Shown here one piece after another: positions 7,498-34,535 of a DNA stretch of 64,000 nucleotides (the stretch's first letter is position 1; every line of letters begins with the position of its first letter). The notes under the pieces are model-generated. The model ran no database searches. It was not told the origin of the DNA and saw only the letters and a program-made list of their open reading frames with translations. Origin of the DNA: a virus (lineage: Duplodnaviria > Caudoviricetes). The position numbers and the translations under genes are program-made. The DNA lies in the IMG/VR virus record IMGVR_UViG_3300021963_000022; one strand, 5' to 3'.

Positions 7498-7979
7498 TAG
7501 AAGTAAAATGTCCCCGCTGGTACCTTCATTGTTGTTGTTTGTGATGGGTTAGCATTGTTAACAATAGTGATAATGATTAAACCATTATCTGCTCCATCAC
7601 CTAATTTCCAACTGATAGTATTGCCACCTAAATCAGGAATAGTTCCACAAATTACACCTTTTGTAGTGCAAGTTGATCCTTCACCGAACATACTATCAGT
7701 CAACTGTTTGGCTAGTTGACTATAAATTCTTGACTCTAAATTAGCTAAAAATCTAGCTTGAGGTGTATTAAGGGCATCACTCTCTACCTTTGCTTTTAAT
7801 GCATCGGCTAATGCCTTATTCTTGTCTTTTTGTAGGTCTTCTAACTGTTTTAACGTTAGTACATGGCTACTATAACCCTGTCCGCTGAAACTAGGGCTAT
7901 TAAACTGATGCGTTAATTCAGCCGAATAGGCTAACACAGCGAGCATCATTAGGGTACTTACTGTTATACCTCTTATCAT
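7497..7979 (-). CDS. csgF: curli assembly protein CsgF-like
   Basis: Signal peptide followed by ELTHQFNSPSFSGQG and FLANLESRIYSQL; adjacent to csgG. Confidence 0.82.
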   Translation of the reverse strand: MIRGITVSTLMMLAVLAYSAELTHQFNSPSFSGQGYSSHVLTLKQLEDLQKDKNKALADALKAKVESDALNTPQARFLANLESRIYSQLAKQLTDSMFGEGSTCTTKGVICGTIPDLGGNTISWKLGDGADNGLIIITIVNNANPSQTTTMKVPAGTFYF

Positions 7980-8065
7980 TATCTGCTCCGATCCGATAAA
8001 TATTATATATATATATTTAGTTGATTTACATCAAAAGATATAGTGTAATACATAAAAGGATATTT

Positions 8066-8347
8066 ATGGGAGATATATTTAAGATTATAGGTGACTTAGG
8101 GTTTCCAATTGCGGTTGCCCTTGCCGGTGGTTACTTTGTTTATTTGACTATCAAACTACTATTACAGGGTGTTCTAGGGTCAATCAAAGGTATGGCCGGC
8201 ATCATTACTGCACTTGATAATCGTGTAAAAACTATGAACCATGATGTTATTCGCATTGATACCATTGTTAGTAATGCTCTAGGTTTACGTCCAGATGCGG
8301 AACGTATAGCCCGTGCTGATGGTAAAACTGATGCTCGGAGGGATTAA
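8066..8347 (+). CDS. small membrane protein, paralog of 9531-9851
   Basis: AGGA RBS then MGDIFKIIGDLGFPIAVALAGG; one TM helix plus coiled region. Confidence 0.75.
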   Translation: MGDIFKIIGDLGFPIAVALAGGYFVYLTIKLLLQGVLGSIKGMAGIITALDNRVKTMNHDVIRIDTIVSNALGLRPDAERIARADGKTDARRD

Positions 8348-8559
8348 TGATTCAATATTGCGTTTATACTAGAGATGACAAATTTTTAGAAGTTGCTAGT
8401 TGGATATCAACTAACAATATAAAGTTTGAACCTCACTTAAATCGTACAAGATTTTGGATTCCGGATGGTGTATTAATGACAGAATTTTTATTAAAGTATG
8501 GTGACATTTGTCCTAGAGTTATGGAGTCTTCGGAGGGATACACATATGCTACATTATGA
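8347..8559 (+). CDS. hypothetical protein
   Basis: 70 aa ORF with start/stop overlap. Confidence 0.6.
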   Translation: MIQYCVYTRDDKFLEVASWISTNNIKFEPHLNRTRFWIPDGVLMTEFLLKYGDICPRVMESSEGYTYATL

Positions 8560-8734
8560 TTACACATGGGATCTAAATCCGAATAGTTTAATTTTTGATA
8601 AAGAATTAGACGTAGATCGATTTGGATGGGAAGAAGGTGACTACTTTAAGCTAGTAGAAGATAGAGAACTAGGTATTAAAAAGTTAGTCAAAGTTGATGT
8701 ATTAGAAAAATTTATCCTACAGGGAAAAAAATGA
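8498..8734 (+). CDS. hypothetical protein
   Basis: ORF in tightly packed run; true start probably at MLHYDY. Confidence 0.55.
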   Translation: MVTFVLELWSLRRDTHMLHYDYTWDLNPNSLIFDKELDVDRFGWEEGDYFKLVEDRELGIKKLVKVDVLEKFILQGKK

Positions 8735-8979
8735 TTATCACTATAGACCTATCTTGGTTATTAAACATAGGACCAAGTTTATATGAATTACTACCGTATT
8801 TCTTATTAGGTCTAGGATTTGGTATGGCATTTTATTATATGTTCTATGATAAAAATTCAATGACCGATTTAGCTCGAAAAAAACACGACTTAGAAGTAAA
8901 AAAAGAATGGTTTCGTATGTTAGCCGAACAGCAAAAAGAGAAGGCTAAAAAAGAAAAATGGAAGAAAAGTTATTATTAA
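8731..8979 (+). CDS. small membrane protein
   Basis: Hydrophobic N-terminal half, basic tail. Confidence 0.6.
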   Translation: MIITIDLSWLLNIGPSLYELLPYFLLGLGFGMAFYYMFYDKNSMTDLARKKHDLEVKKEWFRMLAEQQKEKAKKEKWKKSYY

Positions 8980-8992
8980 AAGGAGAATAAAA

Positions 8993-9529
8993 ATGGCAGA
9001 AGTAAAAACATTATCACGTTCAGAACGTGAAGCACAGCTTAAAGATAGAGCAGGATGGGTCATTACCGTCATTGCACTACTATTAGCAATTACAACTTAC
9101 ATGGCTAGTGGATTTAGTAGCAAAATATTATCTAACACTATTAAAGCGAATGATACTTGGAATTTTTATCAGGCTAAGTCAATTAAGCAATCTATTGCTG
9201 AGGGTCAATTAGAAGCCACCGCAGATCCAAAACGTAGGGAACAACTACAAGCTAAGATTGACAGGTATGAATCCGAGCCTGATAAAGGTGAGGGTAAGAA
9301 AGAGTTGATGGCTAAAGCATTAAAGATTGAAGCAGAACGTGATGAAGCCAAAAAACATTCACCTTGGTTAACATTTGCGGCAATGGCATTTCAGTTAGCT
9401 ATTGTGCTATTATCAGCTAGTATTTTAGCTGTTGATAAACGTATGTTTTGGGGTAGTATTGGTGTTAGTATATTTGGTTCATTACTATTAGCCCAAGGAG
9501 TTTGGCTTTTAGTCCCGTTGGTGATATAA
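8993..9529 (+). CDS. DUF4337-like membrane protein
   Basis: AGGAG RBS; motif ANDTWNFYQAKSIKQ; three TM segments. Confidence 0.75.
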   Translation: MAEVKTLSRSEREAQLKDRAGWVITVIALLLAITTYMASGFSSKILSNTIKANDTWNFYQAKSIKQSIAEGQLEATADPKRREQLQAKIDRYESEPDKGEGKKELMAKALKIEAERDEAKKHSPWLTFAAMAFQLAIVLLSASILAVDKRMFWGSIGVSIFGSLLLAQGVWLLVPLVI

Positions 9530-9530
9530 T

Positions 9531-9851
9531 ATGGATGTAGTAGAACTAATTAATAAATATGGCTTCCCGATTGTTATGGCAGTTGGGATGGGCTTCATTA
9601 TCAAATATGTTTGGGAATGGGCCACAAAAGAAGTTAAGCCAGTTATTAGTGATGCTAACACTGTTCTTATTGCATTGATTGACCGTATCAGGATGTTAGA
9701 TAATGACTTGATACGTTTAAATCAAAAAGTTAATACTGTACTTCATTTACGTGGTAAAACAATTGAGTTTGAACGTGTAGAAGCAGAAAAGCAAATTAAC
9801 AATATTAAAAAAACTGAAGATGATAAGGCTGCAAGTAGCGGAGAAGGTTAA
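9531..9851 (+). CDS. small membrane protein, paralog of 8066-8347
   Basis: Shares GFPI(A/V) and AL(I)DxxRxxxxDxIR motifs with 8066-8347. Confidence 0.75.
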   Translation: MDVVELINKYGFPIVMAVGMGFIIKYVWEWATKEVKPVISDANTVLIALIDRIRMLDNDLIRLNQKVNTVLHLRGKTIEFERVEAEKQINNIKKTEDDKAASSGEG

Positions 9852-10414
9852 TGAAAATTATTGAAGACACAACTAAAAAAATTCCCCATCTATACCTAGA
9901 TATGGATGGAGTACAGGCTGACTTTTTTGGTGCTTGGGCAGATAAGCACGGTGTCTCTCATTGGAAAGCTATACAAGATAAAGAAGGCGAGATTGAAGAT
10001 TTAGCCAATAGTACAGCCGAACAAGTATATGATTTTTTCCGTAAACTCAAACCACTTAGTGGTGGTATGGAAGTTGTTCGTTGGGCACAGCAACACAATA
10101 TTCCATATACAGTCTTATCAGCTCCATTACGTGGACCATTTGCTGATGCAAGTAAACAAGCAAAAAAAGATTGGTTAGACACATATCATCCTGGTTCTAG
10201 TAGTAATGCAATCTTTACGTCAGCTAAGTTTAAATATGCAGTTAGTGATGGTGTAGCAAATGTATTAGTAGATGACTTTGGTCCATACATTCAGAAATGG
10301 ACTGATGCCGGTGGTATACCAGTTAAGCATGAAGATGAGTCAGAGGTATCAAGTGCGGCACAAGATACTATTAATAGACTAGAAAAAATCTACTCACCTT
10401 TTCTGACTAAATAG
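9851..10414 (+). CDS. HAD-family 5'(3')-deoxyribonucleotidase-like protein
   Basis: YLDMDGVQADFF motif I and LVDDFGPYI motif. Confidence 0.85.
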   Translation: MKIIEDTTKKIPHLYLDMDGVQADFFGAWADKHGVSHWKAIQDKEGEIEDLANSTAEQVYDFFRKLKPLSGGMEVVRWAQQHNIPYTVLSAPLRGPFADASKQAKKDWLDTYHPGSSSNAIFTSAKFKYAVSDGVANVLVDDFGPYIQKWTDAGGIPVKHEDESEVSSAAQDTINRLEKIYSPFLTK

Positions 10415-13869: not shown

Positions 13870-15339
13870 ATGGCAATCTCAGGACAAGAGACATTACAAA
13901 TAGGCGCACAAAATAGCCCCACTAATAGCGATTCATTGTGGGTAGCGTTTAATAAAACACAGAATAACTTTAGCACACTTTTTAGTCAGGCTAGTCCATA
14001 TGACATTTTTACTAGTCAAGCAGGTATATCAGTAACGTCTAACGCATCGACTGGTACAGTCACTATTACAAATACAGGTGTTCTTAATTTAATACAAGGT
14101 ACCGGCATCACATTATCGGGTGCAAATGGTAATATCGTTGTATCAGCTACAGGTGGAAACGGGACAAGTGGAGTAACGAGCGTAGGTATTAGTTCAAATT
14201 CACTATCAATAACAAATACTCCAATAGTAAGTTCCGGTGTCATTAGTGTTGATCTACCGGTTCAAACTAATATATTAGCAGGTAATTATATTGCGCCAAC
14301 TGTAACAATTGACCAATATGGTAGAATTACTAATATTGCAAATGCATCTTCATTCGGTACTGTAACAAGTGTAGCAGTTTCCGGTAGTGATGGTATTAGC
14401 GTAAGTGGTGGTCCTATAACTAGTAATGGAACTATTACTCTTACTAATACTGGTGTCACACGACTTACAGCTGGATCGGGTATTGTTTTAACTAGCAACA
14501 CAGGTAATATTACTATTACTTCTACCGCGGCAGGCGGAAGTGTGAATGCCGCGGGTAACACAAGTGAAATTCAATTTAACTTAACAGGAACATTTAGTTC
14601 TAGTGCTAATTTGACATATGATTCAAGTAATAACATATTACGTGTAGGTAATTTAGAATCTACCGGCGATTTATTACCTTCAGCTAATATTACATATGAT
14701 TTAGGTAGCCCAACAAAACGTTGGAAGGATCTATACCTAAGCAATAATTCTATTCTATTAGGTGAAAGTACAATAAGCGTTGATGATGGTGCATTGAAAG
14801 TTAATGGTAACCCACCTGATGCTGTATTTGAGTCATTACCGTTCGGAGAAGGTTCAGGTGTTAGTTGGGTTGCATGGGAAGGCGCCAATTTAACTGTACG
14901 TGGACCAAATGCTAGTATATTATCTACATTACAAAAAGTTGGTGTAGGTATGAAAATTAAACTACTAACACCACCAGCAGTAGCAGGTAACACTTTAACT
15001 ACTACAAGTAGATTAGAATTAACCAGTAATGCTACTCCTGGCTTTTATGAATATACATTTAATGTAGCAGAATCATCAGCTAATTTAGTATATATATACA
15101 GTGCCGAGATTGCATATACTAATACAGTATCTGTTGCATCAGATGGTAACATTGTGTTACCTGGATCAGATTCATCTATTACTTACATCGATGGGTCATT
15201 GGCTGCGCCACAAATTATCGGTGTACCTGCTAATGCTACGGCAAACGGAGTGCCCGGACAGACAGCGTTTGATTCTAATTACATATATATTTGTACTGCC
15301 GCAAATACATGGAAACGAGCGGCAATCGCTACGTGGTAA
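13870..15339 (+). CDS. tail fibre-like structural protein
   Basis: G/S/T/N-rich repeats (GVTxLxAGxGI), TVTIDQYGRIT, PxANITYDLGSPTKRWKDLYL; ATAAATA motif upstream. Confidence 0.75.
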   Translation: MAISGQETLQIGAQNSPTNSDSLWVAFNKTQNNFSTLFSQASPYDIFTSQAGISVTSNASTGTVTITNTGVLNLIQGTGITLSGANGNIVVSATGGNGTSGVTSVGISSNSLSITNTPIVSSGVISVDLPVQTNILAGNYIAPTVTIDQYGRITNIANASSFGTVTSVAVSGSDGISVSGGPITSNGTITLTNTGVTRLTAGSGIVLTSNTGNITITSTAAGGSVNAAGNTSEIQFNLTGTFSSSANLTYDSSNNILRVGNLESTGDLLPSANITYDLGSPTKRWKDLYLSNNSILLGESTISVDDGALKVNGNPPDAVFESLPFGEGSGVSWVAWEGANLTVRGPNASILSTLQKVGVGMKIKLLTPPAVAGNTLTTTSRLELTSNATPGFYEYTFNVAESSANLVYIYSAEIAYTNTVSVASDGNIVLPGSDSSITYIDGSLAAPQIIGVPANATANGVPGQTAFDSNYIYICTAANTWKRAAIATW

Positions 15340-15362
15340 AAAAAGCCCCTAGGGGCTTTTTT
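15339..15362. terminator. bidirectional intrinsic terminator
   Basis: Perfect palindrome AAAAAAGCCCCTAGGGGCTTTTTT between convergent genes. Confidence 0.85.
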
Positions 15363-15369
15363 ATTTAAA

Positions 15370-15591
15370 TTAACTTTTTCGAGTTTTTATTGTACGTTCA
15401 AGCATGAAGTCAGTAAACTTACTAGCGCACATTGCAGGAACATCAATGAACGGATCCTCAAGATAGAATGGGCAACCACTTTTCCATTTACCTTTATCCT
15501 TAAAATATTTCAATTCTATCAAATCCTCATTTCTAGCTGGATTGAATTCTCTACGTGGAGAAAACGTTCTTCGAAAAGTATTAAGTAACAT
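15370..15591 (-). CDS. hypothetical protein
   Basis: 73 aa ORF in packed early run. Confidence 0.65.
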   Translation of the reverse strand: MLLNTFRRTFSPRREFNPARNEDLIELKYFKDKGKWKSGCPFYLEDPFIDVPAMCASKFTDFMLERTIKTRKS

Positions 15592-15592
15592 A

Positions 15593-15781
15593 TTAGGTTC
15601 GTGGCATTTTAGAGGCTTCTGAGATAACTACAAATACATCATCTAATGTATTGCACATTACCTTGGCTGTTTTCCAGTCATCATTTGAGTCATTACCGGA
15701 CACTTCAACCATGAAGCCATTGTCGTAAAAATTAACAGTCAAGCTGTCATTACATTTTGATAGTTTATCTGATAGTTGCAT
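15593..15781 (-). CDS. hypothetical protein
   Basis: 62 aa ORF in packed early run. Confidence 0.6.
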   Translation of the reverse strand: MQLSDKLSKCNDSLTVNFYDNGFMVEVSGNDSNDDWKTAKVMCNTLDDVFVVISEASKMPRT

Positions 15782-15809
15782 ATATTGTATAGGGCCGTAG
15801 CCCTATTAA

Positions 15810-16193
15810 TTAGTTAGTGCTATTAACTGCTTCGAGCACTTGCTCGGCAGTAACTTCTTTTTTCTTGCCACGTGCTTTGATAGATTCCAAGCTTGGCTTA
15901 GCACTTTTAGAAGTCTTAACTTTGACTTCTCCCTTATTGGACTCTTTAGTGCGGTCCTCAATTGCATCACCAATCAATGATTGATCGGATGCTGACTGGA
16001 AATCTGCGTGAGTTTCCAAATACTTGAGTGCTTCAAGTTTAGTCATTTCTGTAGGCAACTCTACCAAGTCAATACGACTTGCGCCACCTTTAGAGAATTG
16101 TTTGATACGGCGTACCATGTCATCAGTAAAACGCACTTTAGCGTTACCGTTGTGAATAGTAATACCGGCGACTTTGAAAGTTTGATTAGCCAT
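15810..16193 (-). CDS. hypothetical early protein
   Basis: 127 aa ORF behind promoter at 16258-16286; basic C-terminus. Confidence 0.75.
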   Translation of the reverse strand: MANQTFKVAGITIHNGNAKVRFTDDMVRRIKQFSKGGASRIDLVELPTEMTKLEALKYLETHADFQSASDQSLIGDAIEDRTKESNKGEVKVKTSKSAKPSLESIKARGKKKEVTAEQVLEAVNSTN

Positions 16194-16452
16194 TTGAGTT
16201 TCCTTTGAAGTTTAAGCTAAGTTTAAAAATGTACTGATATTGCTCAGTACTGTTATAATGATAACACAAATGGAGTTTATTGTCAACCATGTGTGTTACC
16301 AAAATTAGTATGACTCACCCAATAATTGAGCACGTCCGATCGGGCTCATACCACGACCTAGGTTTTCCGCATCCCAGCAGGTATAGCCGGGAAGTTCAAT
16401 ATCATTCCAACGACTCTCTGATAAGAAAAGGCGCACACGAAACATTTTCATT

Positions 16453-16869
16453 TTATTTCTCCAAGATATAAGGTTTATCCCATTTGCCGATGTTAACATC
16501 AACATAGTAGGCAGTGTTGAAATAATCGGTCATTGCATCCGATTCGTCATACCAATCGGCAGCTTTTAATGCCTTGAATGCTTCGGTCAAGAATGCCTTA
16601 GCCTTGCCATCATAGTGATCTTGGAACCAGTAAGGGTTAACTTGATCATAGCCATTAGTATTGGGCTTGAATCCACGAGCTACTTGATAGTGGTCATTGC
16701 CACAAACACGATTGCTGTTACCGATAAAGTCAATAGCACCGGATTTGAGGGTTAAAACAATAGTCATGTGACTACGGACACTCAAGGATCCTTTAACTTT
16801 ATACTTAGCCAAGATTGGCTTGAGTGCTTGTGCAATCTTTGCTTTGCGTTCTTGATTCATGTAAGCCAT
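16453..16869 (-). CDS. hypothetical early phage protein
   Basis: 138 aa ORF behind promoter; C-terminal DYFNTAYYVDVNIGKWDKPY. Confidence 0.8.
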   Translation of the reverse strand: MAYMNQERKAKIAQALKPILAKYKVKGSLSVRSHMTIVLTLKSGAIDFIGNSNRVCGNDHYQVARGFKPNTNGYDQVNPYWFQDHYDGKAKAFLTEAFKALKAADWYDESDAMTDYFNTAYYVDVNIGKWDKPYILEK

Positions 16870-17422
16870 TTCGTATTCCTTTGTTTAACTGTTTAAGATT
16901 CTATTGTAGCACAATGCCCATTTATTGTCAAATTATTGTTCCATCGGATCACCAAGAAAATACTCGGTTACATAGGTGACAACAATGTCTTTGCCGGAAT
17001 GAATACGCAAGTACTCACCTAGAGCTTCTACATTGCGGAACAAATAACCATTTGCTTTGTACATTTCTTAGTCCTCTTTATCAGTTTCAATACAAGTATT
17101 GTAGCACAGGATCCATTTATTGTCAAATTTCACTAAATTCGCTAGAACTGTATCAGTATAGATTCCTGAGAATCCTAGCGATTTTGAAGCACCGGGACGG
17201 TGAAAATGAGTACTTTTGTATGCAAAAAAGTACTACGAAAGTACTAAAATTAGGGTCAACTATTGACGGTATTGTACGGGGTATAATCTTCTTCTAGGTC
17301 ATAAACCGCAGCCTGATACACCCAAGAAACCGGGATTTCTAGCATCCTAGCAATTGTTACAGGGTTAGTACCCACTAACAATAGGTTGCGGATTTCAATA
17401 TCCAAGTCTGCCATTTTACTCA

Positions 17423-17698
17423 TTACAAAACCTCCAACATGTTAGCGGGCACTTTCCAACTACGGAAGTTAGCCGGCTCATCTACAATAATAAATTTACG
17501 ATTGATTTTCTTTACAACACCGGAGATTGCACCGCGCTTTGAACTAGAGAATTTAACATTAGATCCAACTGTCAATGCCGATTTGTTACGCACCACTAAT
17601 TGGGCACGGGCAAAACGCATTGCATCACCGATGCTATTCAATTCTTCGTTAGTGAAGTCACCCTGCATGATAGCAGTATTAATTTGCTTGATGTTCAT
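17423..17698 (-). CDS. hypothetical early protein (SH3-like C-terminus)
   Basis: 91 aa ORF behind consensus promoter. Confidence 0.7.
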   Translation of the reverse strand: MNIKQINTAIMQGDFTNEELNSIGDAMRFARAQLVVRNKSALTVGSNVKFSSSKRGAISGVVKKINRKFIIVDEPANFRSWKVPANMLEVL

Positions 17699-17760
17699 TT
17701 GAACTCCTTTTGACTGAATAAGACTCTATTATATACCCAAACCGATTTATTGTCAACCTT

Positions 17761-18000
17761 TTATTGTTTGATGTTTTTCATTGCATTTTCCATGTCTTCC
17801 AGATGCTTGCGATACTGGATACGGCCAAGATTGATATTGTACATCACATAGACTAGTATTGCAATACAAAATGAGATTCCGATATATGGAATCGCTGTTG
17901 CGGGAATGAGGGTAAGCAAATAAACTGTAGCACACCCTGCTATTGCGGCGAGTGCAATTTCTTTTGCAGTTTGTGCGACTGCTTGTGTTTTATCTGACAT
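17761..18000 (-). CDS. small membrane protein
   Basis: Two hydrophobic segments; promoter and AGGA RBS upstream. Confidence 0.7.
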   Translation of the reverse strand: MSDKTQAVAQTAKEIALAAIAGCATVYLLTLIPATAIPYIGISFCIAILVYVMYNINLGRIQYRKHLEDMENAMKNIKQ

Positions 18001-18057
18001 GTTGAATTTCCTTTCTAAATTTCAATGCAAATATTATAGCACCAAAAGGATTTAATG

Positions 18058-18267
18058 TCAACCTTTTAGTTTATGAATTAGTTCATTGTAATAAGATCCG
18101 GGTAATTCTTGTAGTGCATCTAGGAGCAATGCTTCAATCCTTCCGGTAACATACAATGCCGCATCTATTCTATTGCCTGGACGGCGATCCAAACAAGACT
18201 TAAACTGCCTAGATATAAATTCATCTACCAGTTGTTTGTGTAGTTCTTTTTTGGTAACGTCTTTCAT
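18058..18267 (-). CDS. hypothetical protein
   Basis: 69 aa ORF overlapping the upstream ORF by ATGA. Confidence 0.65.
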   Translation of the reverse strand: MKDVTKKELHKQLVDEFISRQFKSCLDRRPGNRIDAALYVTGRIEALLLDALQELPGSYYNELIHKLKG

Positions 18268-18422
18268 ACAAGTACCTCTCGGTTTGGATGTTTGTCTTTA
18301 CGACGGTATTGTACTTTGGATTGTACAACCTTAGGTTTGAACGGAGTGTTGCTACAAAACAACACTTTGTGGGCCCGATGTTTGGGCTGTTCAATAGTGA
18401 ATGATATAGTTCTTCGTTTCAT
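18264..18422 (-). CDS. ArfA-like small basic protein (52 aa, not in ORF track)
   Basis: MKRRTISFTIEQPKHRAHKVLFCSNTPFKPKVVQSKVQYRRKDKHPNREVLV; perfect TTGACA-17-TATAAT promoter directly upstream. The ORF is well supported; the function is inferred. Confidence 0.55.
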   Translation of the reverse strand: MKRRTISFTIEQPKHRAHKVLFCSNTPFKPKVVQSKVQYRRKDKHPNREVLV

Positions 18423-18454
18423 AATGCGTATTATAGCATAGAAACATATTTATG

Positions 18455-19552
18455 TCAACTTTCGGAAATACCTTGGTAGTTCTGTAGTAGTTTTTGTATT
18501 GCTGAATTTGCATCAGTACCATTACGTAGAGCCTCTGCTACATCATCAATGAATTCTGTTTGGAAGTCTTGTTTTGTTTCTGGACTTAAGCTACGATATT
18601 TTGCGGCTACTGCACTATTTGCTGTCATATGTTTGTTCCACAATTCTTGTGCATGACCACTACTTTGTGACATTTGACTTTGTTGTTGCTGTTGTTGAGC
18701 CTGTTGTTCCTTATCCTGTTTTACTTTGTTTGCACGTTGAATATACTTAAAGCGATTAGGATCCTTCTTCTTCAAGTCAGTGCGGCTAGCATGGTACTTA
18801 TCTGTTACAGGTCTAAACTGCCCACCATATGGATTGAACAATAAGAACTCTGCATCCTCATCACTTAGATTGCCTATCCCCTTTTGTACATCACTTTGTA
18901 GTTGCTTGATGCCTTTATTATATGCATCATAGTCTGCACCTGTTAATGTATTTGCAGGGAAATCATTATCCATATCAATTTGTGGATAGTTGGCTGAATC
19001 TTTGCTATGTAAGTAGTTCATACCTTTAGCAGTAAATTGGTCTAGTATAAAAGCTCCCTTACCCGGACGTAAAAAGTATAATACCTTTGTAAAGAAACTT
19101 ACACCTAACCCAGGAAGTAATTGTAGTTTACGCAATCTTTGAATCAGGTCAAATGCTTGTGCATTTGTTAGATCACCAAAACGTATTTCGTTTAATGCAT
19201 TGTTGACTTGTCGTCTTGCTTCTTTGTCGTTCTTTAATTTCTTGTACAGTAGTTTGGGGTTGTTAGCACGATTGACCATACCGCCCCAGGCCATAATATA
19301 GAATAACAATTTTAAACTACTATTAGCTTTATCGGCAACCATTGCTTTAACTTCAGGCTTACTGTTTGTAGTAGTTGGATAGTTTTGTGGATTGTTCATT
19401 CCAGAAACAGATGCTAAACGACTAGGGTTATACTTTGCAGGTCCCCTGGCATCCATATATTTGTTACCTTGTGGATCGCTTTGTTGAAGCATTTTCCACT
19501 CGGCTTTTAATAATTTTAAATCTTGTTTGTCAAGCACTTCATTAATACGCAT
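18455..19552 (-). CDS. protein with 8-oxoguanine glycosylase (OGG)-like HhH region
   Basis: IMAWGG and LPGLGVSFFTKVLYF followed by ILDQ; Gln-rich C-terminal part. Confidence 0.6.
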   Translation of the reverse strand: MRINEVLDKQDLKLLKAEWKMLQQSDPQGNKYMDARGPAKYNPSRLASVSGMNNPQNYPTTTNSKPEVKAMVADKANSSLKLLFYIMAWGGMVNRANNPKLLYKKLKNDKEARRQVNNALNEIRFGDLTNAQAFDLIQRLRKLQLLPGLGVSFFTKVLYFLRPGKGAFILDQFTAKGMNYLHSKDSANYPQIDMDNDFPANTLTGADYDAYNKGIKQLQSDVQKGIGNLSDEDAEFLLFNPYGGQFRPVTDKYHASRTDLKKKDPNRFKYIQRANKVKQDKEQQAQQQQQQSQMSQSSGHAQELWNKHMTANSAVAAKYRSLSPETKQDFQTEFIDDVAEALRNGTDANSAIQKLLQNYQGISES

Positions 19553-19580
19553 ATAGTATTTATTCTACTATGTATTAATC

Positions 19581-19865
19581 CTATAGTAGTCTGAATAGGG
19601 CAACACTGTCTATGGTTGTAAGTAACAAATAATTTGCCAACATACCAAAACTGTTACGTGACCAAGCCGCCCAAGCATACATACCACAACTAGCAATAGT
19701 TAGTGTAAGATACCATATAAAAGGAACAGCAGGTACAGAACTTGCAAACCAAATTGCTGCACCTATGCTCATGGACCAAGCTAAGGTTTCTATTACAAAT
19801 CTAATTGGATTACTTTTCCAATCCTCTTTGATCCAATTAACTGTACCAGATAATATATTGGTCAT
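19581..19865 (-). CDS. membrane protein
   Basis: Three hydrophobic segments. Confidence 0.7.
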   Translation of the reverse strand: MTNILSGTVNWIKEDWKSNPIRFVIETLAWSMSIGAAIWFASSVPAVPFIWYLTLTIASCGMYAWAAWSRNSFGMLANYLLLTTIDSVALFRLL

Positions 19866-20161
19866 TGACTACAGGTTCGTTCTCTGTATAAACGACCATC
19901 TGCTGTTTGAATCTCTTTCCACTCAGTACAAATTAATGGCTGAGGTGATTGTTGAATGACAACAGGTTGTTGGACAACTATTGGTTGTTGACGTCCTAAT
20001 TCATAACTTATGGCACCAATTACTATAGGTGCTACCCACCAACCCATGCCCGGTCCACGATGATAGCCACCATGGTGACCGTGATGACGGAATCCATGAT
20101 GTTGTGCTACTGCTGAACCTGCTAATACTAATAGTGATATTGCTACTATAATTTTTTTCAT
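19862..20161 (-). CDS. secreted His/Gly-rich hypothetical protein
   Basis: Signal peptide, HHGFRHHGHHGG, terminal Cys pair. Confidence 0.7.
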   Translation of the reverse strand: MKKIIVAISLLVLAGSAVAQHHGFRHHGHHGGYHRGPGMGWWVAPIVIGAISYELGRQQPIVVQQPVVIQQSPQPLICTEWKEIQTADGRLYRERTCSQ

Positions 20162-20188
20162 AGTATTCTCCTATATATGTATAACGTA

Positions 20189-20389
20189 TTACTCAAGTGT
20201 TCCGTTGACTTTGTGTAAGTCAATTGCTTCTTGTAATACAAGTTCTACCATTTTATTTAGCGTAATGTCACGCTTGTGTGCTTCCATAGCTAACTGATAG
20301 ATGTCATGTTCATCTAAATTCAATTCGATTTCGACTCTATTATCTTCTTTTACTGGTTCTGTCATTTTTCTTCCTTGATTTTTTTGCAA
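20189..20389 (-). CDS. small ribbon-helix-helix/HicB-like hypothetical protein
   Basis: LAMEAHKRDITLNKMVE pattern. Confidence 0.55.
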   Translation of the reverse strand: MQKNQGRKMTEPVKEDNRVEIELNLDEHDIYQLAMEAHKRDITLNKMVELVLQEAIDLHKVNGTLE

Positions 20390-20582
20390 CCTCTACTAAA
20401 GGAGCAATGTTGTTGTCATAAATTTGAGCCATAGTTCTATATAACCCTGTGCGTTCTTGGGGCGTCATTCCAGCACACCAAGGTGGGTCATTCGGATCCC
20501 TGTCTAATCCATAATCATGTCTATATGTTAGACACATATCATGGATAATTTTCTCACGGTTATTGGAATCTATATTAATCAC
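20340..20582 (-). CDS. hypothetical protein
   Basis: 80 aa ORF. Confidence 0.6.
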   Translation of the reverse strand: MINIDSNNREKIIHDMCLTYRHDYGLDRDPNDPPWCAGMTPQERTGLYRTMAQIYDNNIAPLVEVAKKSRKKNDRTSKRR

Positions 20583-20711
20583 AATTTATGTAAAGCTAAG
20601 ATAACAAGTAGTGCCACCGTACAAATTATACTTTCAGGAACATACACACTTTTAATTATCATTTTCTTCTTTCATTTAAATTATTATACACATAAACTAA
20701 TATATTGTCAA

Positions 20712-20957
20712 CTAGTTTAACAATCTTTTGGGCATATTAGGATTTTCATCTTCTTCCAAAGCTTGGGCTAAAGTTTCCAAATCCTCATCTCCCAACTCAT
20801 CCAAATCAATTTCTAATGCTTCATCCATGAGTTCACCGGACTCAACTAGTCTAGTAAGTTCAGAAACAAGGTCGTCTAGTTCTTCCTGTGTTCCATCAAA
20901 GTTATCAAAGCACCCGGGTGCAAATTCAATCTTAAGAGGTTTCTTTTCTTCTGTCAT
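20712..20957 (-). CDS. acidic hypothetical protein
   Basis: FAPGCFDNFDGTQEELD; very D/E-rich. Confidence 0.7.
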   Translation of the reverse strand: MTEEKKPLKIEFAPGCFDNFDGTQEELDDLVSELTRLVESGELMDEALEIDLDELGDEDLETLAQALEEDENPNMPKRLLN

Positions 20958-20964
20958 AATCTAA

Positions 20965-21192
20965 TTATCTCCATGCGTTAAATAAACCTAATAAACAAGT
21001 GACAATAGCCACAATATTTACTACTAATTGTGGACGATTCTTTACACGTATAGTCCATATCATAAACATAATTGTACCTAATGTAAATGCTACAATGTTG
21101 TAGGGATAAACACTAGGTCCAATTGAATTACATACATGCCCAGCAATAATGAATACTGCACCTATCCATTGCAGGGTATCGTTTAATTTCAT
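20965..21192 (-). CDS. small membrane protein
   Basis: Three short TM segments. Confidence 0.7.
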   Translation of the reverse strand: MKLNDTLQWIGAVFIIAGHVCNSIGPSVYPYNIVAFTLGTIMFMIWTIRVKNRPQLVVNIVAIVTCLLGLFNAWR

Positions 21193-21407
21193 TCTTCAAT
21201 GCCTAAAATTTCTATAACTTCATCAATCTCTAACAGTTCAATATCATAATATTCAGTGGTAAAATTTGACTCCACGTCTGAATATAATTTCTTAGTCATT
21301 TCATTGCGGTACATTTCTAATGCATCTCTAATAATATTGCGGTTAGATACTGACAAGGTTATGTTTTTATAATCTTGTAATTCAAAAGAATATTGTGCTA
21401 TGTTCAT
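21189..21407 (-). CDS. hypothetical protein
   Basis: 72 aa ORF with overlaps. Confidence 0.6.
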   Translation of the reverse strand: MNIAQYSFELQDYKNITLSVSNRNIIRDALEMYRNEMTKKLYSDVESNFTTEYYDIELLEIDEVIEILGIEE

Positions 21408-21745
21408 TATTTTACTCCAAAAGTGTTTAATGCAGGTTGCATTGTGTTAATTAATTCTGTCTCACGGCTATGTGCTGGCTTCTTACCACGCACAACCTCG
21501 ATGACTCCAAATATAAAACTCTCGGCACCACGTTCACATAGGGCACGTGACAAACCCCAGTTTTTGTTCTCAGTCAAGGCACGTTGCATATGTTTTTGCA
21601 TACGACGGCGTAGTGTCAAAAACACATTGCCTTTATATGACAATGCAGTTAAGCCGATATAATACTCAAATGTTACAACATCTTGGATGTAGTAAATCAC
21701 TTGGTTACGATCGGTCCTACGTTTGCGGGTGCTTTTTGAGTTCAT
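21407..21745 (-). CDS. small GIY-YIG-like nuclease domain protein
   Basis: VIYYIQ..YYIGLT, R..KH, E..LI..MQPALN. Confidence 0.75.
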   Translation of the reverse strand: MNSKSTRKRRTDRNQVIYYIQDVVTFEYYIGLTALSYKGNVFLTLRRRMQKHMQRALTENKNWGLSRALCERGAESFIFGVIEVVRGKKPAHSRETELINTMQPALNTFGVK

Positions 21746-31279: not shown

Positions 31280-31355
31280 TGGAGCGGGAGGCGAGAGTCG
31301 AACTCGTCTATTTCTGCTTGGAAGGCAGACGTGTAACCAAAAACACTTCACCCGC
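31280..31355 (-). tRNA. tRNA-Gly(TCC)
   Basis: Loop CT-TCC-AA, CCA; 5' end overlaps the stop of the GIY-YIG gene. Confidence 0.9.
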
Positions 31356-31890
31356 GTTGATCCTTTTCTTGCCATTTTTTCTTAATAGCATCTGATATCT
31401 TTCTTTTATGTTCTTCTGACTTTGGTGGTCTTGATTTATATTTTGTACCTAATTTAGATTCTGAAATATTCATACGAACTTCATCGGTCATTTTAGGTGC
31501 TGTACCATTCTTACGTCTTGCAATCAAGACTTCTGACAACCTATCTCTGGTTTCTTGACTATGGTGTTTACCTAACATCTTAGGCATACCCGACTTGTTT
31601 ATATAATCGAAGCCACCAAAACCACCTCTACGAATATTGTAAACATCTTCCCTTAATAGGAATTCATCATTTACAAGTTCTTTTTCCCTAGCAAACATTT
31701 CTTCTGCTGTATCAAAATATTCTAAAATATCTTTTTTAAAATTTTCAATTCCATATTTGTCTTTTGCATAATTTAAGATTTTACCGGATCCCATGTAACC
31801 ATCATTTAAATTCTTAGTTTTATGAGTGCCTATATAAATTTTGTTGTCTAACAAATTAGTAATTTGGTATATGTAATAATAGTATTTCAT
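31348..31890 (-). mobile_element. free-standing GIY-YIG homing endonuclease with NUMOD3-like motif
   Basis: YIYQITNLLDNKIYIG; NUMOD3-like GKHHSQETRDRLS; ATAAATA upstream. Confidence 0.9.
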
Positions 31891-31913
31891 ACATTTATTT
31901 ATCAATAATGTGT

Positions 31914-32343: not shown

Positions 32344-32826
32344 TTACTTCATAGATTGTACAAATTCAGTAGAACCTATCGTATACCATGCACCATCTAC
32401 TTGCCATCTTACGTTTGGTATCTTTCCTTGCAGGTATTGCATTATAATATAAGACAATAGTTTTGAATCCATCTTTTGACCCATTTCTATAAGATTGAGA
32501 AAATAGTGTCCATGCTGTTCACTAACATTCATCAATACTTTAGATTGACTAGGTTTCATCCATTCAGGAAATATTTCTGGATGCATTAACCATGCACATT
32601 TATAAGATACGCAAGGATTTTCAGGTCTATCATTGTATATTGTACAGCCATTACTACCTTTGTAATGGCAAGGCATTCCGTTAAAAAAATGGTGACCGTA
32701 TGCTTCACCGCTTAACCAACCTTCACAACATGCGGTACAACCATCACATTTTCTATCTATAACAGGTTTAGTTTTCTCTAAAGTGTTAGCATCAACTATG
32801 GGAATTGTTTTCTTTTTTTTAGACAT
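32344..32826 (-). CDS. YkgJ-like Cys-cluster (Zn/Fe-S) protein
   Basis: CDGCTACC and CTIYNDRPENPC..C motifs. Confidence 0.75.
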   Translation of the reverse strand: MSKKKKTIPIVDANTLEKTKPVIDRKCDGCTACCEGWLSGEAYGHHFFNGMPCHYKGSNGCTIYNDRPENPCVSYKCAWLMHPEIFPEWMKPSQSKVLMNVSEQHGHYFLNLIEMGQKMDSKLLSYIIMQYLQGKIPNVRWQVDGAWYTIGSTEFVQSMK

Positions 32827-32862
32827 GCATTATTTATATAGTGCAAGCATGCCTGATAATTT

Positions 32863-32936
32863 TGGCATCCCCCCAAGGACTCGAACCTTGACTAACGGTT
32901 TTGGAGACCGGTATGCTGCCATTACATTAGGGAGAT
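32863..32936 (-). tRNA. tRNA-Trp(CCA)
   Basis: Loop CT-CCA-AA, G73, CCA. Confidence 0.9.
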
Positions 32937-32940
32937 AAGT

Positions 32941-33129
32941 TTATGATTTTGTATCTATGTTTTGACCTTTACTATGAGTAGGTTCTATTTCACCTACTAT
33001 ATTGTACAGATATTGTACAACTTCAATAATTTGTTTATTAGTTACAGGATCATTTATATCTTTATATACAGTAAGTCTCTGTTGGTTATTAACCATGTCC
33101 CAAGCTGTAGATATACTTTGTACTATCAT
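32941..33129 (-). CDS. small hypothetical protein
   Basis: 62 aa ORF between tRNAs. Confidence 0.5.
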   Translation of the reverse strand: MIVQSISTAWDMVNNQQRLTVYKDINDPVTNKQIIEVVQYLYNIVGEIEPTHSKGQNIDTKS

Positions 33130-33147
33130 ACAACTATTTATATAATT

Positions 33148-33225
33148 TGGAGCATCGGGTCAGATTTGAACTGACGATTTTACGGATTTGCAATCCGTTG
33201 CATTTGACCACTCTGCCACCGATGC
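33148..33225 (-). tRNA. tRNA-Cys(GCA)
   Basis: Loop TT-GCA-AA, U73, CCA. Confidence 0.93.
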
Positions 33226-33230
33226 ATATT

Positions 33231-33428
33231 GCTCTGCATCCCCCGGCGGTAATTATAGAGTATCAAGATATGACGCTATCATACCCATCACACACTCCTT
33301 CCACCCGCTTCCCGACAGGGACCGTTCTCGCACTGCCAGCGGCCTTTCGGTTTAAAGACTACCACCCGTAGTTGTCACACTACTTCTCATCGTGTGGGTC
33401 ACACTATCCGGAGACACCCGGAACGTTC
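33231..33428 (-). ncRNA. candidate structured RNA between tRNA-Ser(GCT) and tRNA-Cys
   Basis: GC-rich; at least six helices visible, including a long-range one. Confidence 0.65.
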
Positions 33429-33516
33429 TGGTGGAGAGTGTGGGATTCGAACCCACGCACCCATTTCTGGATGACAGATTAGCAATCTGCTGGTTTAACC
33501 ACTCACCCAACTCTCC
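33429..33516 (-). tRNA. tRNA-Ser(GCT)
   Basis: Long variable arm, loop TT-GCT-AA, CCA. Confidence 0.95.
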
Positions 33517-33523
33517 TAATACT

Positions 33524-33600
33524 TGGCGCACCGTAGGGGACTCGAACCCCTGACCCCCGCCGTGACAGGGCGGTGCGCTAACCAACTGCGCTAACGGTGC
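33524..33600 (-). tRNA. tRNA-Asp(GTC)
   Basis: Loop CT-GTC-AC, G73, CCA. Confidence 0.95.
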
Positions 33601-33673
33601 ATAAGTAGAATAGGACACCCCTTTGGCCTAGGTCGATTAAGAGTACGCCTGCCCAGCGACTCTCCTATATTCT

Positions 33674-33758
33674 TGGTGGAGATTACTGGGATCGAACCAG
33701 TCGTGCCATAAGGCGGCGGATTTACAGTCCACTGCATCACCATTGATGCTTCATCTCC
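33674..33758 (-). tRNA. tRNA-Tyr(GTA)
   Basis: Long variable arm, loop CT-GTA-AA, CCA. Confidence 0.95.
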
Positions 33759-33889
33759 AAGATGAGTTACGGTTGCAAGACCTAGTGTCTCATTACTGAG
33801 AGAAGTGTCAGGGCGATGTAACTCAAAAATTAGTATAACATAGATGTGTATAATATTAGGGTTGTTGTATACATCTATGTTATGTATTA

Positions 33890-34078
33890 GTATAAGCTAC
33901 TGGTTTCCATGCCAGCCCTTAATTGAGCGGTTACTCTGTCCATCTCTTTTATTCTAACGTCTGTGTGCAGAGAGATACTGCCTATCAGATTCAGAGTAAT
34001 TAACTCGCTAACGGTCTTCTGCCACCGGATCTCTATCATTAATCAAACGCTATTTTAACGAAAATAGTAACGGGATTC
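33890..34078 (-). ncRNA. candidate structured RNA downstream of tRNA-Glu
   Basis: Multiple helices (TTACTCTG/CAGAGTAA, CTATTTT/AAAATAG, ATCTCT/AGAGAT); no ORF in track. Confidence 0.55.
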
Positions 34079-34080
34079 TT

Positions 34081-34155
34081 TGGAAGAGCATAGGAGAATC
34101 GAACTCCTCTTCTTAGGATGAAAACCTAATGTCCTAACCGATAGACGAATGCTCC
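34081..34155 (-). tRNA. tRNA-Glu(TTC)
   Basis: Loop TT-TTC-AT, CCA. Confidence 0.93.
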
Positions 34156-34157
34156 AT

Positions 34158-34283
34158 GTTATTAGTTTTGCTGACGCACTATTTGCTATGCTCAACGGAA
34201 TTGCCAGCTGGACGTACCGTTTATATACATAGTTACTTAGAGTTGACGTTTACTCAATGGCTTACATCAGCAAAACTAATAAC
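34158..34283 (-). ncRNA. candidate RNA closed by a perfect 17-bp stem
   Basis: GTTATTAGTTTTGCTGA (34158-34174) / TCAGCAAAACTAATAAC (34267-34283). Confidence 0.55.
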
Positions 34284-34294
34284 ACACTATATGA

Positions 34295-34535
34295 AAACAC
34301 ACTATGGGAACTATTAAACAAATAATCAGTACCGTCTACTGATGCAATGTCATTCGTCATTACTGCCTAACTGCCCGTCACGTTAAACAATATTGCTATT
34401 GTCGGTACGCTTCTTGTACTCTATGCGAAGCCAGTCCGTCAACTGGTTATGCTTCCATAGAGTACCTAACGGATCAGGTAACCCTTAATATGTTTACATA
34501 TAGTCCCTGTAACTTAAACAGGGCTATATGAAAAA
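34295..34535 (-). ncRNA. candidate multi-hairpin RNA at the start of a promoter-driven unit
   Basis: 10-bp GTACTCTATG/CATAGAGTAC helix, ACAATA-GCAA-TATTGT GNRA hairpin, 5' 13-bp hairpin. Confidence 0.55.

Follow-up and report, generated by a model that had tools for sequence, protein, structure and literature searches.

A pseudoknotted non-coding RNA gene of an undescribed family in the tRNA arrays of large uncultured, mostly lake phages

Introduction

The transfer RNA (tRNA) clusters of phages can also harbour RNAs that are not tRNAs. From the tRNA cluster of phage T4 arise the stable RNAs RNAC and RNAD (species 1, species 2), the role of which is unexplained (PMC3014915; PMC9697503), GOLLD and ROOL are phage RNAs that are often found near tRNA islands and form nanocages (bioRxiv 10.1101/2024.12.08.627333), and manA assembles through kissing loops (bioRxiv 10.64898/2026.07.01.735769). 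Here we describe an RNA element of 202 nt in the tRNA array of an uncultured Caudoviricetes phage (IMG/VR record IMGVR_UViG_3300021963_000022), of which a stretch of 64,000 nt, in the following called the window, was analysed. The element occupies the minus strand between tRNA-Ser(GCT) and tRNA-Cys(GCA), where a sequence-only reading had proposed a GC-rich multi-helix RNA of about 200 nt that could not be assigned to any family.

RNAC, RNAD, GOLLD and ROOL are analogues of the lake-phage RNA and not its relatives. The likeness to RNAC and RNAD is one of small stable non-coding RNAs that reside in a phage tRNA cluster, on the strand of the tRNAs and abutting tRNA genes. However, a covariance model of the new family (R1, described below) that was run with filters off gave no match in positions 69500-73500 of T4, and homology was not detected. 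It is a further difference that RNAC (139 nt) ends in a tRNA-like T-arm (GGUUCGAAUCC) and RNAD (119 nt) in CCA, whereas the lake-phage RNA has neither, is about 200 nt long and is multiply pseudoknotted. The T4 cluster also contains a homing-endonuclease gene, and amid the tRNA genes of the window lies an open reading frame (ORF) of 185 amino acids (31348-31905, minus strand) with an N-terminus that, by eye, looks like a GIY-YIG homing endonuclease (YIYQITN...YIG) and recalls segB of the T4 tRNA cluster. GOLLD and ROOL, in turn, are likewise RNAs of phages or prophages by tRNA islands with complex pseudoknotted folds and without a known protein partner or function (bioRxiv 10.1101/2024.12.08.627333), but they are 3-4 times larger. 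Although manA is phage-associated, pseudoknotted and about 200 nt long, it has been described chiefly as a 5' untranslated region element of cyanophage and Photobacterium genes and not a resident of tRNA arrays. The Rfam models of GOLLD, ROOL and manA gave no match to the lake-phage RNA, neither at the gathering threshold nor at E<=10.

Conservation and fold of the RNA

The existence of the RNA follows from its relatives. Alignment A1, which holds 82 representatives with pairwise identities below 90%, was the source of covariance model R1; helices were drawn from corrected mutual information and pairs were then counted for each helix, which gave a full model in which 63 pairs are distributed over 15 helices. 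Standard pairs are found in 91.1% of the cells, compared to 75.2% in column shuffles and 32-45% if the partners are slid by 1-3 columns, and the covariation score amounts to 0.428 versus 0.155 in the shuffles. Changes on both sides occur in 47 of the 63 pairs, so that the lack of covariation which the sequence-only reading had named as an argument against function was not encountered. As none of 500 shuffles reached any of the observed values, the covariation support is overwhelming, and the proposal of a multi-helix RNA of about 200 nt between the two tRNA genes is borne out. Folding of the 203-nt gap sequence alone (33226-33428), on the other hand, was not significant (z = -1.46); the sequence by itself therefore proves nothing, and the proof rests on the relatives. 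An end-to-end helix of this single-sequence fold (GUGUCUCC with GGGGGAUGC) was rejected as it is absent from them.

From the match of R1 and the alignment boundaries of the relatives, the conserved unit spans 33227-33428 on the minus strand. The match scores 226 bits (E=1.4e-74, model positions 1-205) and is the only one in the window, i.e., the RNA is present as a single copy. The alignment of relatives begins and stops at these boundaries, and the 3' end of the unit (33227) reaches 4 bases further than had been assumed before. On the upstream side, the CCA end of tRNA-Ser(GCT) (33429-33516, minus strand) abuts position 1 of the RNA, and downstream the 5' end of tRNA-Cys(GCA) (33148-33225, minus strand) lies one base beyond 33227, about 5 nt past the conserved GCAGAGCA; both tRNAs were called by ARAGORN and Rfam. 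The gap block is ORF-free, and its GC content (0.53-0.55) is, as had been noticed, well above that of nearby coding DNA (0.30-0.37) and near that of the flanking tRNAs. RNA positions are given below as p = 33429 - window coordinate, position 1 being window position 33428, and all elements lie on the minus strand.

A two-domain, multiply knotted fold is conserved. The hairpins P1 to P5 make up its 5' domain, in which loop 1 kisses loop 3 and loop 2 pairs with a GGGUGGU hub. In P1 (UCCGG/CCGGA, 33407-33422, p 7-11/18-22) and P3 (GUAGU/ACUAC, 33368-33383, p 46-50/57-61) all five pairs change on both sides, and P2 (GUGUG/CACAC, 33392-33404, p 25-29/33-37) covaries in two of its five pairs with the others being invariant; these three hairpins had been recognized from the single sequence. 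P1 and P2 are enclosed by P0, in which CGU (33423-33425) pairs with AUG (33388-33390; p 4-6/39-41). P0 is 91% paired, with a middle pair of the G-U type in 70 sequences and of the C-G type in 8, which is weaker support than that of the other helices. For P4, the sequence-only reading had proposed CC-GAAA-GG, the bases of which belong to the loop and the 3' strand of the actual helix GUCUUU/AAAGGC with the loop AAACCG (33342-33359, p 70-75/82-87; both sides change in five of six pairs). P5 (CGC/GCG, p 88-90/98-100), with C-G replaced by U-A in 14 sequences, forms together with a crossing mini-pseudoknot the segment 33324-33341. In this pseudoknot GU (33332-33333) pairs with AC (33324-33325), whereby U97-A104 is changed to C-G in 7 sequences and to U-G in 1, and the adjoining pair is mostly A.C.

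The kiss joins GUC in loop 1 (33413-33415) with GAC in loop 3 (33374-33376; p 14-16/53-55). It varies by lineage (GUC/GAC, AUC/GAU, ACG/CGU), with G-C in 37 and A-U in 32 sequences. One could imagine that these loop-loop pairs, or other surfaces of the RNA, act between molecules and thereby give rise to dimers, rings or cages, as in GOLLD, ROOL and manA. The complementarity and covariation of loops 1 and 3 would suit such an RNA-only self-assembling particle, as would the phage tRNA-island niche that is common to GOLLD and ROOL (bioRxiv 10.1101/2024.12.08.627333), the fact that RNAs of less than 200 nt including manA build cages by intermolecular kissing loops (bioRxiv 10.64898/2026.07.01.735769), and the failure to find a linked protein gene. 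However, intra- and intermolecular pairing cannot be separated by covariation, the adjacent 5-bp hairpins P1 and P3 suit an ordinary intramolecular kiss, and there is no Rfam match to any of the three cage-forming RNAs, so that we regard self-assembly as unlikely.

The G-rich hub GGGUGGU (J3/4, 33361-33367) is invariant. Its GGU at 33364-33366 (p 63-65) pairs with ACC of loop 2 (33397-33399, p 30-32) in 99.6% of cases, and the pairing is upheld where A-U is changed to G-C in two sequences and in one relative (L162) that carries GGUCC/GGACC. The second GGU of the hub (33361-33363, p 66-68) may contact ACC of loop 4 (33349-33351, p 78-80). This candidate contact is also 99.6% paired, but we count it as unproven because it is almost invariant.

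The 3' domain is a bent arm built from P6, P7 and P8; two internal loops in it are invariant, and its tip is freely exchangeable. P6 is a long-range helix between GGUCCCU (33317-33323, p 106-112) and GGGGAUGC (33236-33243, p 186-193), the latter being followed by the conserved tail AGAGCA. All seven of its pairs (GGUCCCU/GGGGAU) change on both sides, and a sub-class lengthens the helix to 9 bp (UCCUCCCUG/CAGGGAGGA). P7, between GCGG (33305-33308, p 121-124) and CCGC (33246-33249, p 180-183) within the invariant AUAAUUACCGCC, is 100% paired, and its second pair is C-G in 67, U-A in 12 and A-U in 3 sequences. P8 (GGAGUGU/AUACUCU, p 131-137/166-172), which changes on both sides in five of seven pairs, makes up 33257-33298 together with its variable tip hairpin. 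Highly conserved although unpaired are the J2/3 linker (window copy: GAUGAGAAG), the P5 loop, GUCGGGAA, the 3' tail GCAGAGCA, and GUGGAA opposite AUAAUUA. Large insertions and length variation, in contrast to this conservation, are mostly confined to the P8 tip and the interval between the hub and P4.

P7 also decides against further helices that had been drawn from the single sequence. The proposed 8-bp helix GGUGGUAG/UUACCGCC has to be rejected because changes of CCGCC to CCUCC or CCACC are compensated in GCGG (p 121-124) and not in the invariant GGGUGGU; CCGC of UUACCGCC thus pairs with GCGG at 33305-33308, as C-G, U-A and A-U. Similarly, CCGCU/AGCGG enclosing GGCAG/CUGUC is compatible with the sequence, but it has a covariation score of 0.00 and clashes with the covarying P7. 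As such, the three 5' hairpins and a variable hairpin (UAUGA/UCAUA, which is the P8 tip) of the earlier drawing hold, and about half of the proposed helices are wrong. The evidence supports that these errors touch the drawing only and not the reading of the site as a multi-helix RNA.

At the base of the P8 tip lies a putative box C/D-like kink-turn, with UGU-GA-UG (33286-33292) opposite UUGA (33263-33266). The window copy fits a kink-turn with the UGU bulge, G140.A166, A141.G165 and a U.U pair. The motif UGAUG...UUGAU is found in 127 of 225 members and is replaced by other sequence in the remainder, i.e., it is not universal. The tip itself comes in at least 37 discrete sequence types, which range from 33 to 68 nt among the common types listed, and an identical tip can be found with different 5'-domain and kissing-loop types. 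The combination of the same tip with different 5'-domain types indicates recombination or modular exchange, and the tip of the window copy (33267-33285) as well as its equivalents throughout the family behave as an exchangeable module.

Three short resemblances within the RNA were considered and rejected. The string GGGAAGC, reminiscent of helix 8 of the signal recognition particle (SRP) RNA, sits in the J6/7 loop and the P7 strand and not in a tetraloop hairpin, and it has no Rfam support. The series CAAUGC...GGUCCC...GGUGGA(A/G)GG, which bears a resemblance to the rice twister ribozyme, does not match the twister model, and its GUCCC covaries with a far 3' GGGAU, unlike in twister. Lastly, AUUACCGC matches the complement of the 530 loop in 16S over 8 nt, which by our own estimate is within chance for 8-mers.

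Distribution of the family

A 29-mer from the core of the RNA matched 12 IMG/VR contigs, and three looser patterns from different parts of the RNA matched 57, >120 and >120 IMG/VR viral contigs, respectively. In a scan of Joint Genome Institute (JGI) metagenome data, >119 contigs were matched, nearly all of which come from lakes or other freshwater according to the source labels of the runs and the project series in the contig names. The search for relatives in freshwater that had been suggested for this site was hence productive both in IMG/VR and in metagenomes, the latter being mostly freshwater. A profile search of the loci among the matches listed yielded 285 full-length copies with 230 distinct sequences and lengths of 175-295 nt (median 204). 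Four large or complete phage records (172-349 kb) contain exactly one copy each, and a record of 524 kb contains two. In the latter (G001, 524,565 bp, the IMG/VR record that holds locus L139) the copies lie on opposite strands at 119580-119793 (minus) and 424194-424395 (plus), which may reflect either a genuine duplication or a chimeric assembly. The family belongs to large uncultured aquatic, mostly lake, phages, resides in their tRNA arrays and has a wide distribution among lakes.

Cultured phages and prokaryotic genomes gave no comparable result. BLAST of the RNA against 50,697 GenBank phage records gave no match at E<=1, the other BLAST matches from the site covering the flanking tRNAs only, and two exact patterns had 0 matches in GTDB (one genome per species, about 185,000 prokaryotic species), although exact patterns can miss divergent copies. 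The NrdA proteins of cultured phages reach no more than 60.6% identity to that of the window. Xanthomonas phage X1 has the closest one, and R1 did not match the tRNA array of this phage; by NrdA similarity, freshwater Burkholderiales would be no more than a guess at the hosts. A neighbouring Cys-rich protein of 160 amino acids, used as another route to relatives, led to distant loci without tRNAs only.

The RNA family matches no catalogued family and is undescribed. The inability to assign it that had been stated from the sequence is substantiated by cmscan, in which the RNA alone matched none of the 4,227 families of Rfam 15 at E<=10. At gathering thresholds the whole window yielded tRNAs only, and at E<=10 a stretch of 601 nt gave tRNA-derived matches and a single partial match to sX4 (33357-33530; 14.7 bits, E=1.2), the gathering score of which is 70 bits. 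Two divergent family members searched against Rfam at E<=10 returned nothing relevant. A published description of the RNA was not found, although the 8,495 IMG/VR candidates of PMC10690425 could include it.

The position among tRNAs would suit a tRNA-processing RNA, and together with the SRP-helix-8-like GGGAAGC it raises the question whether the element belongs, in strongly diverged form, to a known family, namely ribonuclease P (RNase P) RNA, transfer-messenger RNA (tmRNA), SRP RNA, a group I intron or T4 RNAC/RNAD. ARAGORN and Rfam, however, detect neither a tRNA nor a tmRNA within 33227-33428, and no cloverleaf or acceptor plus T-arm with CCA is found. The Rfam models of RNase P RNA, SRP RNA, 6S RNA and group I introns do not match the RNA, and three members in total are without an Rfam match at E<=10. 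The search for covariation-supported pairing of the 5' and 3' ends, as in a P1-like helix of RNase P, found none, and the two ends do not pair with each other. In combination with the missing R1 matches in the T4 tRNA cluster and the array of Xanthomonas phage X1, this makes such an origin extremely unlikely.

Genomic context

The element is not protein-coding. A stop-free frame, in whichever frame, is present in at most 15% of the members, and their lengths are evenly distributed modulo 3. ORFs on the plus strand over the site, as well as an antisense 'family' at 88 loci, are by-products of the conservation of the RNA, and the largest 'family' among its neighbours is just this spurious antisense ORF over the RNA itself.

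The association with tRNA genes is strict with regard to the strand and loose with regard to the partner. In the related loci, all 3,402 of 3,402 tRNAs called by ARAGORN lie on the strand of the RNA, and a first set of 186 loci of up to 14 kb contains a median of 13 tRNAs per locus. A tRNA ends at the 5' end of the RNA in 145 of 276 copies (with a gap of 0-4 nt in 93 of the 105 copies that have a 5' tRNA in the first set), and a tRNA starts within a few nt of the 3' end in 86 of 280. Upstream partners include tRNAs for Tyr, Ser, Asp, Met, Arg and Asn. Downstream, tRNAs for Ala, Cys, Ile, Leu and Thr are among at least 13 different tRNAs, and ORFs and other RNAs occur as well. Since the partner tRNAs vary in this way, the RNA is a cassette that is shuffled within arrays and not an appendage of one tRNA.

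Copies without a preceding tRNA follow a CCA-ending structured element, the stop codon of an ORF, or a promoter. In some relatives a consensus promoter (TTGACA-N17-TATAAT) ends a few nt before position 1, as in L282 at a distance of 5 nt. In the window, no promoter-like or terminator-like site was found on the minus strand within 32800-34300, which fits a read-through transcription of the array. At four loci (L234, L324, L280 and L312) a conserved element located 55 nt upstream ends in ...GGGACCAGCCCACCA; ARAGORN calls no tRNA there, and the element may represent a tRNA-like RNA of a non-canonical kind that carries a CCA end. Five other loci (L015, L063, L030, L088 and L173) carry a conserved hairpin ATACAGT...ACTGTAT and then TTTATAAAA directly before the RNA. 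The hairpin looks terminator-like and overlaps a -10-like box, which suggests that a new transcription unit starts at these copies.

It could also be imagined that the RNA acts in cis as a sensor, either as a riboswitch or as a T-box-like sensor of tRNAs, and governs read-through into the downstream tRNAs or gene. G-rich strands bind the CCA ends of tRNAs in T-boxes and RNase P, and the hub of the RNA reads GGGUGGUA, which resembles the T-box core. The putative kink-turn in the arm of 127 of the 225 members and a size that is typical of large aptamers would agree with a sensor, too. However, the downstream neighbour varies without any consistent gene class, a terminator or other expression platform is missing, the T-box and riboswitch models of Rfam do not match at E<=10, and the hub is already paired internally with loop 2. 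We therefore consider a cis-acting sensor very unlikely.

With respect to protein partners, no gene family is consistently linked to the RNA within 4 kb on each side of 283 loci. Among the neighbours are an ORF of 200 amino acids with an N-terminus that looks metallophosphoesterase-like by eye (49 loci), an ORF of 75 amino acids that is RNA-polymerase-omega-like (RpoZ-like, NRFELVLIAAQRARELRRG; 42 loci) and an ORF of 165 amino acids of unknown kind (41 loci), which recur, without being universal, up to 4 kb downstream of the RNA, e.g., in L285, L074 and L029.

The array in the window comprises 28 co-oriented tRNA genes on the minus strand between about 29.3 and 37.7 kb, 27 of which were called by ARAGORN and one by Rfam only. 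The latter (33677-33758, minus strand; 36 bits, E=7e-4), which ARAGORN missed, shows by eye a GUA anticodon, a long variable arm as in tRNA-Tyr, and a CCA end. Between this Tyr-like tRNA and tRNA-Asp a GC-rich spacer of 76 nt (33601-33676, minus strand) contains no ORF and, above noise, no Rfam match; a further small RNA of the array or a decayed tRNA may lie here.

Presence in RNA libraries

The stretch or part of it is contained in 20 public runs from 17 studies, six of these runs being RNA libraries. Contigs of four RNA runs (X15, X16, X17 and X19, of which X15 and X16 belong to one freshwater study) were placed on 33000-33800; uncovered parts of the stretch were not used as evidence. The depth, which sums all relatives that are at least 90% alike, is about 14,000-21,500 in X15, about 7,600-10,100 in X16, up to 866 in X17 and up to 117 in X19 for the conserved core of the RNA (33297-33404), and 0-53, 169-520, 269-297 and 17-41, respectively, for its strain-specific part (33243-33296). 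It amounts to 4.6-330 for tRNA-Cys across the four runs and to 0 in all of them for the ORF at 33000-33134. These data are good evidence for the presence of the family in lake RNA, where it is probably abundant. Contigs of X15, X17 and X19, which come from three studies, span the junction between tRNA-Ser and the RNA with 31 nt or more on either side, and this provides weak evidence for co-transcription with the upstream tRNA.

The same junction bears on the idea of a new ribozyme that cleaves at its own 5' edge and thereby releases the 3' end of the upstream tRNA, or catalyses another reaction on tRNAs. With at least three or four pairings of the crossing or tertiary kind and numerous unpaired nucleotides that do not vary, the RNA is reminiscent of glmS, hepatitis delta virus (HDV)-like and twister ribozymes, and in about half of the loci the conserved sequence begins 2-3 nt past the upstream CCA. 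However, the RNA alone had 0 matches at E<=10 to the Rfam models of self-cleaving ribozymes (hammerhead, HDV-like, twister, twister-sister, pistol, hatchet and glmS), and the contigs from RNA libraries still join tRNA-Ser to the RNA, although contigs cannot measure cleavage. Moreover, tRNA arrays are already processed by host nucleases, and many copies stand behind a promoter or an ORF, where self-cleavage at the 5' end would serve no purpose. Catalysis of this kind thus appears rather unlikely to us.

Discussion

The present study identifies a discrete, usually single-copy, multiply pseudoknotted non-coding RNA gene in the tRNA arrays of phages. From our point of view, it is best understood as the gene of a stable, trans-acting non-coding RNA of about 200 nt that represents an undescribed family, a reading to which we would assign a probability of roughly 0.6. 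The alternatives discussed above overlap with it in part, as it concerns biogenesis and action in trans and not chemistry.

In this phage, the RNA would be transcribed as part of a polycistronic tRNA transcript, whereas some relatives would use a promoter of their own. The host nucleases that mature the flanking tRNAs could then free the RNA from the array transcript: its 3' end would arise where RNase P cuts at the 5' end of tRNA-Cys, and its 5' end from the endonuclease and exonuclease steps by which the CCA end of tRNA-Ser is made. The freed RNA might act as a folded particle that binds a partner, be it a protein, the ribosome, tRNAs or further copies of itself, and by analogy with what has been proposed for T4 RNAC/RNAD and GOLLD/ROOL it could do so in the course of infection.

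Several points weigh against a stable RNA that acts in trans. Extensive pseudoknotting is also typical of ribozymes and riboswitch aptamers, and the commonest real neighbour family accompanies the RNA in only 49 of 283 loci. Assembled contigs can show neither the ends nor the strand of an RNA, and the junction-bridging contigs could stem from DNA carry-over in the RNA libraries. In addition, the abundance relative to the neighbours is uncertain, since many related phages contribute to the high depth of the core and standard libraries capture tRNAs poorly.

As a more far-reaching and tentative possibility, which we hold to be doubtful, the family could constitute a new class of functional RNA machine of large aquatic phages, namely a ribozyme that acts on itself or on tRNAs, a small RNA-only assembly, or a tRNA-binding scaffold. 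As an assembly or a scaffold, the RNA would support the phage in operating its own set of about 28 tRNAs, e.g., with the G-rich hub holding or shielding their CCA ends.

Current annotation pipelines leave the RNA unannotated or place a spurious antisense ORF over it. With 230 distinct sequences and several pseudoknots proven through compensatory changes its fold is unusually well determined, and a length of about 200 nt brings it within reach of chemical probing, crystallography and cryo-electron microscopy. It may also represent a new fold of a ribozyme, an aptamer or an assembly. Beside RNAC/RNAD and GOLLD/ROOL, the family represents a third, unrelated and much smaller example of non-tRNA RNAs in phage tRNA islands, and as such it offers a tractable route to the question of what role these RNAs play there.
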